Shown here: positions 285-55,911 of the stretch, piece after piece | Numbering within the stretch: position 1 is the stretch's first letter | Layout of the letters: every line of letters starts with the position of its first letter | Origin: a virus | Length of the DNA: 55,911 nucleotides | Reading direction: 5' to 3' (one strand) | Virus genome (UHGV): UHGV-1364082 | Translations under genes and position numbers: made by a program | The notes under the pieces: generated by a model | Databases searched by the model: none | What the model saw: the letters and a program-made list of their open reading frames with translations, nothing else | What the model was told of the DNA's origin: nothing

Positions 285-410
285 ACCCAAAATATACCTA
301 TATGAATTTTTATCTTGACTTTCAATCGTACCTTTAGGTATTATCTCTTCACGACGCCCGGGGAAGGCGAACACGCCCGGCACACCAGCCGGAAAGTAGC
401 CACAAGCCCC

Positions 411-531: not shown

Positions 532-616
532 GGAAGGATGGCAGAGAGGCCGATTGCGGCGGTGAAAACCGCCGATGTGAAAGCATCCGTGGGTTCGAAT
601 CCCACCCCGTCCGCCA
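532..616 (+). tRNA. tRNA-like element with CCA end, type-II (Ser-like) architecture and a non-canonical anticodon loop. Could be a pseudo-tRNA, a frameshift-suppressor-like tRNA, an attP tRNA fragment or a tmRNA-like tRNA domain.
   Basis: Perfect T arm GTGGG-TTCGAAT-CCCAC, then CCCGTCC-G-CCA. Variable hairpin GATG-tgaaag-CATC. Anticodon-like stem with a UGAAAA loop of 6 or 8 nt. D arm GCA...TGC resembles tRNA-Ser. The 5' acceptor strand pairs imperfectly. Confidence 0.45.
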
Positions 617-794: not shown

Positions 795-869
795 AGCCGG
801 GTAGCCAAGCGGTTACGGCAACAGGCTTTGACCCTGTGATCGGCGGTTCGAATCCGCCCCCGGCTGCCA
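795..869 (+). tRNA. tRNA-Gln (anticodon UUG).
   Basis: Acceptor AGCCGGG/CCCGGCT. D arm GCCAAGCGGTTACGGC, like E. coli tRNA-Gln. Anticodon stem-loop ACAGG-CTTTGAC-CCTGT. T arm GGCGG-TTCGAAT-CCGCC, discriminator G, CCA encoded. Confidence 0.85.
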
Positions 870-1153
870 CGTTCAAATATCGCCGTTCCGGGCGGTGCAG
901 GGAAAACCATATCCCCCTGAAAGCGTGATGATGCCAGTCCCCCTACCCCTGCATCGACCGGAGCAGCGATAAGCCCCAAAACAACGGACGAACATTACCC
1001 GAGCAAGGGGGCGTCCGTTGGAACAACGCGAAGATGTGACTCAAAACGGGCGTTGTACCCCCGCTCAGGCGAGGCAATGCGTTCGGGCGAGGAACGGAGC
1101 ACTATCCACAGACGGCAATAGGGCTGGACTGTGAAACATGACGCGGATGAATT

Positions 1154-1345
1154 ATGGAAGTAACTTTTGTTTGCTGGACGGTATCATGTTGCATCATTGG
1201 ATATGGTCTAGGAGCGATCAGGTCCGCTTTTAGTATTGAAGGGCCAAAAAGCTTACTTGTCATGATTTTTCCTGTTTTTCTATCCATTCTACTGGTTTTG
1301 TTTGGAATGTGGTTTGATGGATATGTAATTTTTTGTATTCGGTAG
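1154..1345 (+). CDS. Small hydrophobic/membrane protein, hypothetical.
   Basis: 63-aa ORF in a local AT-rich patch. Strongly hydrophobic. Weak RBS. Confidence 0.25.
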   Translation: MEVTFVCWTVSCCIIGYGLGAIRSAFSIEGPKSLLVMIFPVFLSILLVLFGMWFDGYVIFCIR

Positions 1346-1749
1346 GCGGTAAGCTGACCTTTCGACAGTTCGACCGCCAGCATGAAAGGGAGCGCGAGGA
1401 ATCGTACTCCCGAACCATGCTAGAGCGTGGATAAGGTTGTTTTCACTAGTCGCTGGTCTAGGGCGTGGTGATTCCCGGTGTACTGTATCCGGCATCGAAC
1501 CACCCGCCCATGAAGTTTTCCCTATCCGCCATACCACCGATGACACTACCACCGGACTGGGCGGGTTATGGGGGCTGATTGTCAAAGAACGATTATTAAA
1601 ATGAGCTTACTTAGAAGATAAAACAGTGTATCCTATTGAAAAAGTTGATATTTTTAAAACTCATAAAATCCCATAAATCGCTTATAAATTGCCCATAAAG
1701 TTCGTGGACAGGCTACGCACAGAGTAAAATGTCCTGTTTGGGAGGATTG

Positions 1750-1935: not shown

Positions 1936-1990
1936 GAATCTCAAAAAGAATTGAAAACGGCTTTTGAGATTCTGTTCCCCTTTTTTCATC
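1936..1990 (+). terminator. Hairpin terminator.
   Basis: GAATCTCAAAA...TTTTGAGATTC 11-bp stem, followed by a T-rich tract. Confidence 0.45.
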
Positions 1991-2470
1991 TTTCCCACCC
2001 TCCCCATTCCGGCAAGAGGGCGGGAACCGCCCTGACCCTAGTTCTCGGTAGGCGAAGAGTTCAGGAAGTGCCTAGAGCCAGAAGGCAGAAAGGCATTTGA
2101 GCTTTCCCTGAGTTCCGGGTGGTGAGTCTCAGGAGCAAAGGCAAAGTCTCGCCCTTACCCGCTATCACACGTGGGCAGGACATTGCCTCGACAGGTTCCG
2201 GTATGGAGCCGTCCCTATCGCTTCGGCAGCCACACGCGGACATCACGCTGTGACCTTGGAGCTTTCCGGCTGATGCGCCGTCTTGCGAGATTGTCCCTTC
2301 TCCACTTTCGTCTCTGGACACCCCGGCACTCGCTACGTGGTTCCGGGGGATTTCATGAGACATCACCGCCACCGTCTGAATACCGTCCAGTGATACCGCC
2401 CCTTGAGCGGTTGCCTACTCCCTCCTGTTCGCTTCTTCGCGGGGCGGTTGGGCGTGCCCTGTGAAAAGAG
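1990..2470. ncRNA. Candidate large structured non-coding RNA, identity unknown.
   Basis: About 480 bp of GC-rich DNA with only Arg-rich junk ORFs. Long-range complementarity (GGTGGTGAGTCTCA at about 2119 with TGAGACATCACCGCCACC at about 2355) and a UUCG-type tetraloop. Lies next to tRNA genes. Confidence 0.3.
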
Positions 2471-2473
2471 ATT

Positions 2474-2512
2474 TACTAGATTTTAGTATATTGTCAACTA
2501 CTAAATTTTAGA
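2474..2512. promoter_or_regulatory. Two operator-like repeats (TAGATTTTAGTA / ACTAAATTTTAGAT) upstream of the XRE regulator.
   Basis: Near-palindromic 12-14 bp motif. Two more copies sit downstream of the gene. Confidence 0.55.
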
Positions 2513-2566
2513 TTACCGTCCGATACCAATATCGTGCTACAAGGAGGGTAAAAAGGAGTGGAGAAT

Positions 2567-2854
2567 ATGCTTACCAAAGACGGGATGGTCATCTTTGATG
2601 ATGCAATCCGAACCCAACTTGCAGCACGACAAAAAGAGCTTAGACTGTCAGATAAGGCATTAGGACAAATGGCTTTCCCTTTCATGGGAAACCCTCTTGG
2701 AAAGGTTCGCTCTATATTGATAGCTCAAGGCGCAGGTGAGGATAAGAAGCCTCAGAATCTTCGTATGGCTGACCTTGTGAACCTGTGCCAAGCCTTGGGA
2801 TTGAACCTGCATGACGTAATCAGAATGGGTTTAAAACAGGCAGACGGAAAATAG
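2567..2854 (+). CDS. XRE-family HTH transcriptional regulator (Cro/CI-type).
   Basis: ATG with AAGGAG RBS. HTH signature ...MADLVNLCQALGLNLHDVI. Confidence 0.7.
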   Translation: MLTKDGMVIFDDAIRTQLAARQKELRLSDKALGQMAFPFMGNPLGKVRSILIAQGAGEDKKPQNLRMADLVNLCQALGLNLHDVIRMGLKQADGK

Positions 2855-2970: not shown

Positions 2971-3018
2971 GTTTTCAACGAGACGGGGAACGAACCCCGC
3001 CACAAAGGAGAAAGCAGA

Positions 3019-3264
3019 ATGAACGCTCAGAGAAAGGAAAATATCGCCCGCGCCATTATCGCCAACCGCTCGACGGCTCAACTTTGCGAGATGTTCGAGG
3101 CCACCAACAACACGGACAGGGAAAAGATTCTCGAACAGGCGATGGTTCGCGGCTGGATCATGGACGAACTGGAAAAGAGGGACGCGGAAGCATTCGACCG
3201 CTGGATCGACTGTGAAGACCCCAAGATGATGGAAAGGCCCCGTTGTTTCTTCATCGCCGCCTAG
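3019..3264 (+). CDS. Hypothetical early protein.
   Basis: ORF with AAGGAG RBS directly downstream of the promoter. Confidence 0.5.
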   Translation: MNAQRKENIARAIIANRSTAQLCEMFEATNNTDREKILEQAMVRGWIMDELEKRDAEAFDRWIDCEDPKMMERPRCFFIAA

Positions 3265-3310
3265 CCCCGGCCCCTGCCCCGATTCTTCGGGGTAGCAACC
3301 GGGATTGGGA
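3261..3310 (+). repeat. Intergenic hairpin repeat, copy 1 (CCTAGCC...CCCCG-ATTCTT-CGGGG...CGGGATTGGGA).
   Basis: About 50-nt element shared with copies at 3721 and 4194. Confidence 0.6.
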
Positions 3311-3342
3311 TTCAAGCCCGAAAGACCAAAGGAGAACAGCCA

Positions 3343-3554: not shown

Positions 3555-3720
3555 CGAATTTCGCGGGAACGCCCCGCACAGTTCTTTGACAATCAGCGCG
3601 ACGATGCCCCCAAGCGCGACGTTGTACCCGCATAAGCGGCATGGCGTTGGCCTCTGGTAGCGAAAGCATGGGCGGAGCACACACGGCGAAGACAAGAAGG
3701 ATTGGAGCCGTGAAATCCAG

Positions 3721-3771
3721 CCTAGCCCCGCACTTGCCCCGGATTCCGGGGCAGGAAACGGGATTGGGAAC
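3721..3771 (+). repeat. Intergenic hairpin repeat, copy 2.
   Basis: CCTAGCCCCG...CCCCGGATTCCGGGG...CGGGATTGGGA. Confidence 0.6.
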
Positions 3772-27324: not shown

Positions 27325-27852
27325 CTATTCAGATTCATCTGTTGGTGCCAGAATCAGCCCACACTTTGCTGCCATTTCCTCATTCAGTACTAGAACCGGG
27401 CGGCTTCCCCAATTCCATGCCGTACAGAAGTGGCGAAGATACTCCTTCAATGCGTCATGAACGCCGGGGAGCCAGTCTTTTTCATGATTCTTGATAACAA
27501 GTACAAAGCAAAAATCAGTTTTGGCATAATCGACTGATGCCAACAATTCTCCTAGATCTGCATTCCTTCTTGAAATGATGACACTGAGCAGCAAAGAAAA
27601 TCCGTCAATAGCCTTCTGTGCGATTTCGCCTATGAATTGTTTAAAGTTATCTGGTGATGGTTCCTTGGGGTGTGGCGCAGATGTCTTTGCCTCCACCAAG
27701 CAAATCAGCCCGGGACTTTTCTTCCTGATGAACTCAACGGACTTGACACCTTGCAACCCGGTATCATGAACGTATTTTTCGACAAAAAATGTGTGGCGGG
27801 GATCACAAAGAAAATGCATCCCTGACTCACAAATCGTCTGAACAGTGCTCAT
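27325..27852 (-). CDS. Small partner protein, possibly a PD-(D/E)xK nuclease.
   Basis: ...FLCDPRH...GLICLVEAKTS... resembles D...ExK. ATGA overlap with the upstream ATPase. Confidence 0.35.
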   Translation of the reverse strand: MSTVQTICESGMHFLCDPRHTFFVEKYVHDTGLQGVKSVEFIRKKSPGLICLVEAKTSAPHPKEPSPDNFKQFIGEIAQKAIDGFSLLLSVIISRRNADLGELLASVDYAKTDFCFVLVIKNHEKDWLPGVHDALKEYLRHFCTAWNWGSRPVLVLNEEMAAKCGLILAPTDESE

Positions 27853-28859
27853 GCCAGTGATACCCTAACTTCTTCTTCGTAAAGCCTCACAGACTCGTCA
27901 ATGATGCTGTTCTTAGGCATTCCATCAAGCATGTCATTGTAGACTGCCTTACCATCCCCAAGCGAAAGGACAGGGATGGACATGTCCCTTTCGAGCGCAA
28001 TAATAAAGAGCTTTTTGATAACGAAGTAAGAATGCGTTGCGATAAAAAATTGTATACCGCATTCAGCAAGCAACGTGATAATTTCCATGAGTTCGCTGAT
28101 TGCCTGTGGATGGAGGGCGGCTTCCGGTTCATCTATGAAAATCCGTGAATCAGGCGTGAGGTAACGGTTTCCAAGAAGTGTATCTAGGATAGCCGTCTTT
28201 TTCGTGCCTTCCGAAGTCGTACCAATCGGAAAACGGAAACTTCCCTTCTTGAACGTCCAGCGATCCTTTTGCGGGTCGAACTCAATCTTACCGCCGAGGA
28301 AATCGCGCAGCTTTTCCCGTGAAGAGGCAAAGGCCGTGAGGTTTCTACCTTTGGTGGTAGAAATGCGTAACGCTTTTGCGAGATCAAAATAGGTGTCGTC
28401 AAACCCGAACATTGCATCCTGTTCCCGCGACTTCAAAATGATCTTTTGTAAGGAAAGCACTTCCTTTGCGGGAAGAAAGATGGAGCTTGTTTCCGTTGGT
28501 AGCGTGTTGCTTGTGACCGAAACTTTTCTTGTCGTATCCTGACCAAACGAGAAAGAAATACCACCCTGTTCCGTCATCATGGAAAAACTAAGGGGTGATT
28601 CAATAGGTTTTCGTACCAGATCGCCAAGCCTTTCAGCCTGAAAAGTCCAGTAAAGTTTGTCGGATACGATCTCGGAAATGGTTCGGTTATCATTTCCACG
28701 CCCGTTCTGCTCAATACCCTTTATCGCCACATACATAGCCTTGAGCAAGAAAGTCTTGCCTTGACCATTCCCGCCAAGTATAAGGTTGATATTGGTGAGA
28801 TTGTCCCATTCGATACTCTCTAATGGGCCGAAATTCTTGAGTGCAACTGACGTGATCAT
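27849..28859 (-). CDS. ABC-type AAA ATPase (AAA_15/AAA_21-like), defence-associated type.
   Basis: Walker A ILGGNGQGKTFL, Walker B RIFIDEPEAALHP, H-loop IATHS. Confidence 0.65.
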   Translation of the reverse strand: MITSVALKNFGPLESIEWDNLTNINLILGGNGQGKTFLLKAMYVAIKGIEQNGRGNDNRTISEIVSDKLYWTFQAERLGDLVRKPIESPLSFSMMTEQGGISFSFGQDTTRKVSVTSNTLPTETSSIFLPAKEVLSLQKIILKSREQDAMFGFDDTYFDLAKALRISTTKGRNLTAFASSREKLRDFLGGKIEFDPQKDRWTFKKGSFRFPIGTTSEGTKKTAILDTLLGNRYLTPDSRIFIDEPEAALHPQAISELMEIITLLAECGIQFFIATHSYFVIKKLFIIALERDMSIPVLSLGDGKAVYNDMLDGMPKNSIIDESVRLYEEEVRVSLA

Positions 28860-47192: not shown

Positions 47193-47275
47193 CTCCGCTA
47201 TCGGCCCCGCATGAAAACCTTGGGCAGGGGCGCGGAATACCCTTTTCGGCTGGCCTACCTAGCCCAAGGAAATTT

Positions 47276-54555: not shown

Positions 54556-54978
54556 ATGAATGAAAACATGTACGAACGTATTATGCGAAATTTGAAGATG
54601 ATCCTACAGGATCGCGGCAAGCAGGCGGAGCTTTCAGCAATTACGGGAATAGCTGCACCTAATCTTTCTCGATGGTATACCGGAGAGCGAAACAACCCTA
54701 CGCTGAAAAACGTAGGTGCTGTATTCGACGCGGTAGGGGTCAAGGTAATTTTCCCTTGGGAAGTAGAGGGAGATTTTTCTAAAGATATTGATGCAAAGAA
54801 TAAAAGGATTCACGAACTTGAAATATCTATGGAAAAGTTGTCTCAAGAAAATTTAAGGCTTGAGGGGGAAAATAGACTTGCGCAAAAGCAGATCGAAAAT
54901 CTTACTAATGAGAAAATTGATCTTCTAATAAAAATTCGCCAAATGAGTAAAGAAAACCCCGCACAGGGCGGGGAATAA
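54556..54978 (+). CDS. CI-like repressor (XRE HTH plus coiled coil).
   Basis: LSAITGIAAPNLSRWYTGERNNPTLKNVGAVFDAVG. Confidence 0.65.
   Translation: MNENMYERIMRNLKMILQDRGKQAELSAITGIAAPNLSRWYTGERNNPTLKNVGAVFDAVGVKVIFPWEVEGDFSKDIDAKNKRIHELEISMEKLSQENLRLEGENRLAQKQIENLTNEKIDLLIKIRQMSKENPAQGGE

Positions 54979-55811: not shown

Positions 55812-55911
<100 letters not shown>

Follow-up and report, generated by a model that had tools for sequence, protein, structure and literature searches.

The stretch of DNA analysed here (the window) is UHGV virus genome UHGV-1364082, 55,911 nucleotides (nt) in length, and represents the ~56-kb genome of a temperate phage with genes for an integrase, an ERF recombinase, a DnaB-like helicase, a terminase and tail proteins. 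Between a tRNA-bearing noncoding island and the gene for an immunity-type regulator lies a GC-rich segment which the original prediction, made from the letters alone, had outlined at 1990-2470 and proposed to be a large structured noncoding RNA. BLAST searches and alignments confirmed that a block is present at this position, although the conserved unit, referred to below simply as the block, is somewhat shorter than first outlined:

2004-2461 (+ strand): conserved noncoding block, variable towards its 5' end (2004-2100) and near-invariant in its core (2101-2461)

The GC content over 1990-2470 is 58-60% compared with 50.4% for the whole window, and the segment is, as had been claimed, free of any open reading frame (ORF) other than arginine-rich junk. 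Its ORFs, one of 103 aa on the - strand and four of 97, 49, 44 and 36 aa on the + strand, are all rich in Arg, Ser and Pro. All six reading frames of the block are interrupted by stops, and a Pfam search with the translations of the block ORFs gave zero matches. Copies of the block in other genomes are distinguished from one another by indels of 1, 2, 14 and 17 nt, and the variable sites of the core fall into the three classes of position modulo 3 as 6, 12 and 10, with no codon periodicity and no third-position bias. The frame-breaking indels, together with the absent codon periodicity at variable sites, rule out a coding gene. We also rejected an internal repeat and the template repeat of a diversity-generating retroelement, as the window contains the block only once.

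Using the 98-aa regulator encoded downstream, exact words of the block and the translated junk ORF as anchors, we reached 24 distinct copies of the block, every one of them in a phage or prophage contig of gut Desulfovibrionaceae and 87-99.6% identical over the block. They were drawn from IMG/VR contigs, human-gut metagenome contigs, Logan/ENA assemblies and one Bilophila metagenome-assembled genome. Exact-word scans of IMG/VR, JGI metagenomes and GTDB genomes gave close copies only, within the same range of identity, and a degenerate-pattern scan of IMG/VR with the junk ORF returned the same block family again. A 19-mer match in L005 (L numbers are our handles for loci) lies inside a coding region and was set aside as chance. 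Among 50,697 phage records, blastn in its 'distant' mode matched tRNA genes only, with block DNA in no deposited phage. An nhmmer profile of the block found no diverged copy in any of the fetched loci, including related phages without the block, or elsewhere in the window, and a GC block at the same position in L019 gave a non-significant local alignment score of 44.5 (shuffles, 36.3 ± 6.4). The block family is genuine yet shallow.

Conservation within the family is uneven. Core identity to the window is 95.6-99.7% across all 18 loci compared, whereas in the same genomes identity to the window amounts to 67-99% for the leader of the upstream promoter P315, 68-99.6% for block A and 68-96% for block B (two further noncoding modules, see below), and the immunity genes beside the block are often unrelated between copies. 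The 361-nt core holds about 28 variable sites and a single 1-nt deletion (in L037), and 2101-2160 is among its invariant stretches, substitutions and indels being concentrated in 2004-2100. The shortest common extent of the block is 2001-2463, as seen in L008/L035. The right edge is sharp, with ...GGGCGTGCCCTG (...GCCCTG) constant and leading directly into the -35-like TTGAC(T) of the regulator promoter, followed by operator palindromes and then by a regulator of ~95-100 aa. At least eight immunity types, often unalignable with one another, share this end point, and in homologues of the window regulator at loci that lack the block, homology begins at 2469-2471. The left side usually consists of an AT-rich hairpin (1936-1975 in the window) and the junction motif GGGTAAAATGTCCTGTTT, and further left the sequences differ. 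Relatives L009-L019 have no block, so that it is optional. Judged by these comparisons, the block is a discrete and evidently horizontally shuffled noncoding module of temperate gut Desulfovibrionaceae phages.

Immediately to the right of the block lie the elements of a genetic switch:

2461-2520 (+ strand): promoter/operator region of the regulator, read from the sequence and compared across eight immunity types
2558-2854 (+ strand): ORF of the 98-aa immunity-type regulator, with a putative helix-turn-helix (HTH) fold suggested by its sequence pattern only

The probable -35 hexamer of this promoter is located at 2461-2466 (TTGAAA; TTGACT in relatives) and the probable -10 hexamer, TAGTAT, at 2484-2489. 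Operators TACTAGATTTTAGTA (2474-2488) and TACTAAATTTTAGAT (2499-2513) flank the short element TTGTCAAC (2491-2498), and the next early promoter (2942-2970) carries the operator sequence again. The regulator has 22 homologues, one of them named from an uncultured Desulfovibrio, and gave no match when compared with Pfam, PHROG and PDB.

To the left of the block, the + strand carries an island with the following features:

315-344 (+ strand): strong sigma-70-type promoter P315, TTGACT-18-TATTAT, by consensus match
532-616 (+ strand): tRNA-Ser-like gene with a long variable arm (ARAGORN 'tRNA-???')
795-869 (+ strand): tRNA gene, tRNA-Gln (ARAGORN; Rfam 795-866)
870-1140 (+ strand): block A, ORF-free and GC-rich, conserved in relatives
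1345-1600 (+ strand): block B, a second GC-rich ORF-free module, which ends with GGGGCTGATTGTCAAAGAAC and usually precedes the block
1936-1975 (+ strand): AT-rich hairpin GGAATCTCAAAAAG / CTTTTGAGATTC, then a T-run (alignments)

Blocks A and B, which had been pointed out as similar ORF-free GC-rich stretches, do exist and are conserved in relatives. The placement of the block next to tRNAs, in turn, holds only loosely, as the tRNA genes belong to the same region but both lie more than 1.1 kb away. The gene at 532-616 scores 27.7 bits against the Rfam tRNA family (532-613), for which the gathering score is 29, and is 76-80% identical to phage tRNA-Ser genes. It has a 4-nt GAAA loop in place of the anticodon loop and hence no anticodon, and it could be a decoy or a processing signal instead of a decoding tRNA. 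Block B is also found in phages without the main block (L009, L016, L019), and an inverted copy of its end occurs at 3581-3646. The AT-rich hairpin accompanies the block in most copies and is missing in L008/L035; a match of this hairpin to CRISPR-DR45 (25 bits, E = 0.18, gathering score 37) was dismissed as chance.

In 12 loci, a homologue of P315 with its leader precedes the block by 0.85-2.7 kb and points the same way, and in L029 and L037 the whole interval from this promoter to the regulator is noncoding and GC-rich, made up of leader, block B, linker, hairpin and block. A hairpin motif, TTCA(A/C)CGA..ACGGGGAA(C/G)G...CCCCG, stands directly after the -10 of P315 (345-380) and after that of the early promoter (2971-3000). 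It is kept in relatives (L009, L019, L025, L029, L037) and, by its sequence, looks like a boxB/nut-like or pause element. The window also contains a second genetic switch, in which a cro-like HTH gene running from 54417 back to 54260 on the - strand is divergent from a 140-aa repressor-like gene (54556-54978), the product of which matches a transcriptional repressor in PHROG. The operator of this second switch, ATACCTTTAGGTAT, recurs over the spacer and -10 of P315 (327-340), and the noncoding island is therefore probably under the control of the second-switch repressor.

Folding of the block as + strand RNA, by minimum free energy (MFE) and by consensus of aligned copies, predicts the following elements:

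2018-2033 (+ strand): GC hairpin GGGCGG-GAAC-CGCCC at the 5' edge (alignments)
2051-2110 (+ strand): variable hairpin domain with polymorphisms 2068 G/A, 2097 T/C and 2100 A/G
2117-2133 (+ strand): 5' arm of a long-range helix (MFE and consensus fold)
2137-2190 (+ strand): invariant hairpin AGGCAA-GUCU-GCCC / GGGC-AGGA-UUGCCU with an 18-nt loop (inverted repeat and shuffles)
2231-2252 (+ strand): hairpin CACA.CGC / GCG.UGUG (consensus fold and haplotypes)
2321-2348 (+ strand): hairpin CCCCGG / CCGGGG (haplotypes)
2354-2372 (+ strand): 3' arm of the long-range helix (MFE and consensus fold)
2384-2454 (+ strand): long 3' hairpin closing the block, with apical loop ACUCCCUCCUGU (consensus fold)

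The long-range complementarity noted initially (2119-2132 with 2355-2372) is present in both the MFE and the consensus fold. In the 491-nt MFE structure, G2117-A2131 pairs with U2356-C2372 with one bulge and one U2120.G2368 wobble, which is changed to U-A in three haplotypes, while in the 22-sequence consensus fold the helix comprises 17 pairs (columns 178-195 with 412-430). A local hairpin, CCUGAG...CUCAGG, competes with this helix. The claim of stable local hairpins is borne out for 2137-2190, which has z = -4.5 on the + strand and -4.2 on the - strand (0 of 200 shuffles as stable) and is the sole sub-structure clearly beyond chance. The remaining hairpins have z values between -1.0 and -2.6, and the energy of the block as a whole is not clearly below that of shuffles (z = -1.7 on the + and -2.1 on the - strand for 1985-2475 against dinucleotide shuffles). 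The hairpin at 2018-2033 is present as its exact reverse complement (loop TTCC) in some copies and is represented by a different GGGC-loop-GCCC hairpin in others.

Two paired positions show double substitutions. At pair 2238-2246, 10 core haplotypes have G-C and five have A-U, the mixed state never being observed, and pair 2326-2343 is either G-C or, in six haplotypes, A-U, with A.C in L036 only. The changes at the two pairs are incompletely linked, since L037 carries only the second. In the 22-sequence alignment, the cells with changes on both sides of a pair number 6 on the + strand compared with 1.8 ± 1.1 in column shuffles (0 of 500 shuffles reaching this value) and 12 compared with 3.4 for the best - strand structure (again reached by no shuffle of 500), counts to be read with the caveat that kin sequences may beat every shuffle without any structure. 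A check for covariation thus yielded two G-C/A-U double changes, but with the same statistics on both strands, and has little power because all 24 copies are at least about 87% identical. The support for a base-pairing constraint is real but thin, and we consider it modest. What stands of the proposed large structured RNA is a noncoding, discrete and strongly conserved element with some pairing constraint; a large ornate fold is weakly supported, given a global energy close to that of shuffled sequence and covariation of low power.

As covariation cannot decide between the strands, we judged the strand from context. The tRNA genes and both small ORFs of the island in the window lie on the + strand, as does a truncated ORF in L025, and consensus matching gave no strong + strand terminator between 345 and 2470. 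The common variants at 2068, 2097, 2100, 2368, 2395 and 2453 form G.U pairs on the + strand and C.A mismatches on the - strand; those at 2068, 2097 and 2100 stay paired only with G.U wobbles on the + strand, and in the 3' hairpin 2395 A/G, 2445 C/T and 2453 C/T are all wobble-compatible on that strand. Both the 5' and the 3' hairpin gain 5-6 kcal/mol in stability on the + strand, with folding energies of -22.1 kcal/mol (z = -2.6) compared with -16.4 kcal/mol (z = -1.4) for 2051-2110 and -31.1 kcal/mol compared with -26.5 kcal/mol for 2384-2454. The element TTGTCAAC resembles the sequence after the -10 of P315 and that of the early promoter at 2942-2970, and since it also follows these two other rightward -10s it need not be a leftward -35 and is better explained as a shared + strand promoter-proximal element. 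The leftward replication operon opens with its own cro-like gene, beyond P315. Among the RNA models, this context makes the + strand fairly likely.

The block is noncoding, modular, extremely conserved and fixed in position, with a co-oriented promoter upstream and a few pair-preserving substitutions. Its transcription, strand, processing and any regulatory or host-directed role are what we infer from these features, and we give about even weight to the proposal that it is a + strand noncoding RNA module, placed last in a long early transcript which continues into the immunity regulator. Such a transcript would start at P315 and would be long and mostly noncoding, consisting of a hairpin leader, purine-rich GC blocks, optional tRNAs and small ORFs, block B, an AU-rich linker with its hairpin and, as the last module, the block, before continuing into the promoter/operator region and the regulator gene. 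The block would fold as several hairpins closed by long-range helices. It may be a stable RNA cut from the precursor at the AU-rich linker, with its 3' end shielded by the terminal hairpin, or it may act in cis on the read-through transcript entering the regulator gene. A more specific version, in which a ~460-nt structured RNA released from the tRNA-containing early transcript would control the regulator or disable a host function as part of the lysis-lysogeny switch, is in our view doubtful; the near-invariance of the block amid module exchange would follow from such a role. If the block is a functional RNA, it would constitute a previously undescribed phage RNA family, in phages of gut sulfate/sulfite reducers (Desulfovibrio, Bilophila), and would occupy an unusual place, welded to an immunity-regulator promoter within a largely noncoding early transcript with tRNA and tRNA-like genes. 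Its extreme conservation amid mosaicism implies that the block is not easily changed by these phages. If it is a DNA site or a hitch-hiker, the finding would be ordinary.

A number of observations weigh against a + strand RNA. Near-invariance extends alike over stems and loops, the folding energy is about that of shuffled sequence (for the trimmed block, z = -1.2 on the + and -0.6 on the - strand), and consensus folds and pair statistics are as good on the - strand. The MFE of 1985-2475 is 9.5 kcal/mol lower on the - strand, and the core is pyrimidine-rich on the + strand (purine-rich on the - strand); pyrimidine-rich sequence is unusual for structured RNAs. The singletons of L036 at 2236 and 2326 and of L020 at 2195 are A.C on the + strand and G.U on the - strand. 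In L003, a leftward replication operon abuts the block without an obvious promoter of its own, which fits leftward transcription, and the islands of L025, L009 and L016 contain a + strand terminator-like hairpin, so that read-through may need antitermination. Finally, the hexamer TTCCGG occurs five times within 459 bp on the + strand of the block (at 2007, 2113, 2196, 2264 and 2341) and not once on its - strand, compared with 30 and 36 occurrences on the two strands of the whole 55.9-kb window; five copies of any hexamer are reached by only ~1% of block shuffles, and all five TTCCGG copies occupy sites that are invariant among block homologues. Two further apparent cases of leftward genes at the block were discarded: a leftward gene at the block position in L014-L018 was judged spurious, the DNA there showing a rightward promoter-like sequence and a GC-rich stretch, and in L029 block B and a P315-like promoter intervene between the block and a leftward operon, which leaves L003 alone with the abutting arrangement.

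A role at the DNA level remains a serious rival, one that we regard as possible rather than probable. The block would then be a protein-binding platform, or a recombination or replication site, beside the switch, with the inverted repeats as binding sites. Equal constraint on stems and loops, the unremarkable folding energy and the same-strand TTCCGG copies all speak for it, as do the replication operon next to the block in L003 and pair statistics that do not differ between the strands, as for DNA palindromes. However, the spacing between TTCCGG copies is irregular (106, 83, 68 and 77 bp), they lack any extended context in common, and wobble-compatible polymorphisms would be meaningless in duplex DNA. 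The replication operon lies 1-4 kb from the block in most genomes, and the replication modules that accompany it are of at least two types, pairing an initiator with a primase/polymerase-type protein (L003) or with a primase/helicase (L029). In addition, the element is found within a transcription unit that also carries tRNA genes.

An RNA from the - strand is unlikely in our judgement, though several of the points above favour it. It would originate at a promoter interleaved with that of the regulator and would be either the leader or attenuator of a leftward operon or an RNA ending at 2018-2033. TTGTCAA (a leftward TTGACA) is present ~30 bp to the right of the block in all immunity types, and plausible -10 hexamers, if correctly assigned, would put the start at the sharp conservation edge. 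At the left end, the terminal hairpin is swapped for other GC hairpins, each of them followed by a U/C-rich tract on the - strand. The lower MFE for 1985-2475 and the purine-rich core on this strand, the G.U pairs formed by the singletons of L036 and L020, and the replication operon directly next to the block in L003 point in the same direction. In contrast, the recurrence of TTGTCAAC after two other rightward -10s, the C.A mismatches produced by the common polymorphisms and the leftward operon's own cro-like gene and promoter region further off are at odds with leftward transcription of the block. Sequences to the left of the block (block B, tRNAs, P315) are + oriented in nearly all other loci, and a canonical terminator on the - strand was not found.

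Functionless DNA that was recently spread by recombination while hitch-hiking beside the switch is an improbable explanation. Similarity among the copies is indeed very high, all of them stem from a single narrow host group and habitat, and phage mosaicism is evident all around the block. Nevertheless, conservation of the block far exceeds that of the neighbouring genes and of the other noncoding modules in the same genomes, its variable 5' 100 nt differ from a near-invariant 360-nt core, and it is this uneven variation and the contrast with neighbouring modules that make recent neutral spread less likely. The identical right boundary in at least eight immunity contexts and the double substitutions that keep pairing likewise speak against it.

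It is very unlikely that the block is a protein gene read through a recoded stop or by frameshifting, or a pseudogene that decayed recently. The + strand frame from position 1987 is broken by TGA alone (five times) and would be open under code 4. Read with TGA=Trp, however, it gives no Pfam match, and elsewhere the phage genome has normal long ORFs under table 11. The indels between copies, including the 1-nt core deletion of L037, break the frame, and the variable sites show no third-position bias. The sequences thus argue against coding under an alternative code or by frameshifting, which would have overturned the noncoding prediction. When compared with protein libraries of 5.8 billion and 1.84 billion sequences, the 103-aa - strand ORF matched translations of the same block DNA and otherwise gave just four weak multi-stretch matches, all in long proteins, which we judged spurious.

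That the block diverged from within a known large RNA family (ROOL, GOLLD, HEARO/omega RNA, a group I or II intron, RNase P, 6S or tmRNA) is the least credible proposal, suggested by a size and phage context that recall ROOL and GOLLD and by the HEARO elements that relatives carry elsewhere. A cmscan of the whole window with Rfam 15 at gathering score detected only the tRNA-Gln gene (795-866) and an int-alpA motif (47205-47269), and a permissive scan of 250-2600 at E <= 10 returned no ROOL, GOLLD, HEARO, OLE, raiA, introns, RNase P, 6S or tmRNA, so the initial likening of the block to GOLLD and ROOL was not upheld. Matches to Rfam inside the block were at chance level (mir-3070, 22 bits; Ocean-VII, 11.7 bits; a snoRNA, 19.8 bits). 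ARAGORN found no tmRNA in the window, only the genes at 532-616 and 795-869. HEARO (RF02033) has no match in the block or the window, and the ORF list contains no IscB-size ORF adjoining the block. The search was able to detect such RNAs, as HEARO (IscB omega) RNA was found in two related phages, at L003:3373-3587 and L037:1045-1259, both on the - strand, with 137 bits compared with a gathering score of 83; these copies sit in the rightward early region, away from the block.

The block is probably best described as a candidate new RNA family that resembles known large or immunity RNAs only in a general way. ROOL and GOLLD measure ~580 and ~800 nt, respectively. They are large ornate RNAs in Rfam that are common in phages and prophages, often near tRNA genes, and their structures have been determined by cryo-EM (PMC12286853). 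Like them, the block is several hundred nt long, noncoding and phage- or prophage-borne, in a transcription region with tRNA genes; unlike them, it is smaller, matches them neither in sequence nor in structure, is restricted to a single narrow group of phages and to a fixed place beside an immunity promoter, and offers weak evidence of an ornate fold. The c4 antisense RNA of P1/P7 and the CI RNA of P4 are immunity RNAs processed from leader transcripts of temperate elements; they are ~70-80 nt long and pair with repeated target sites in their own transcript, and C4 families are represented in Rfam. The block similarly lies in the leader of an early/immunity unit, adjoining a genetic switch, on a putative precursor with tRNA or tRNA-like elements as possible processing guides. 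It differs in its length of ~460 nt, in the absence of a C4 match and of significant target repeats, and in the presence of a protein regulator with operators. For the C4 family, 250-2600 gave no match, and a c4-a1b1 match at chance level (12.7 bits, E = 6.9) falls at 3261-3324, outside the block. Complementarity of the block to the rest of the window was nowhere significant, and the best candidate, pairing of 2262-2280 with 378-396 in the P315 leader, was rejected as chance (BLAST E = 7).

The put sites of HK022 and the nut/boxB sites of lambda are cis-acting antitermination RNAs of lambdoid early operons, under ~75 nt in length and located downstream of the promoter and near it. The boxB-like hairpin right after P315 and the early promoter gives the island around the block a likeness to them, but the block itself is an optional element and, in the window, lies 1.7 kb away from P315. 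The HEARO/IscB omega RNA, present in relatives L003 and L037, is a GC-rich structured RNA of mobile elements, a character that the block would share; the block differs in having no HEARO score and no long IscB-size ORF beside it. We also discarded a CsrA sponge, as the eight GGA and three CAGGA motifs counted by eye in the block are weakly above a rough expectation, and an anti-Shine-Dalgarno loop, CCCUCCU at 2421-2427, as one such pentamer is expected by chance. Full-text literature searches returned no description of this element, and the passages that a text search found in a paper on a Desulfovibrio piger prophage (PMC12724379) do not mention it.

Several other features of the window were recorded in passing. 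(GA)n runs are present at both ends (1-45 and 55880-55911), which makes the contig probably circular or permuted, and an ORF starting at 55813 reads into the (GA)n repeat, where it would encode a Glu-Arg repeat. The int-alpA RNA motif (RF02996) mentioned above lies on the - strand and scores 43.5 bits against a gathering score of 35.8. A candidate two-gene anti-phage defence system, HEC-02, occupies 27325-28859 on the - strand (A, 335 aa, E = 3e-145; B, 174 aa, E = 2e-39). Finally, an intergenic repeat of ~55 nt with 83% identity occurs at 3256-3311 and 3720-3769 on the + strand, each copy just upstream of an early ORF, and is kept in L001 and L003.

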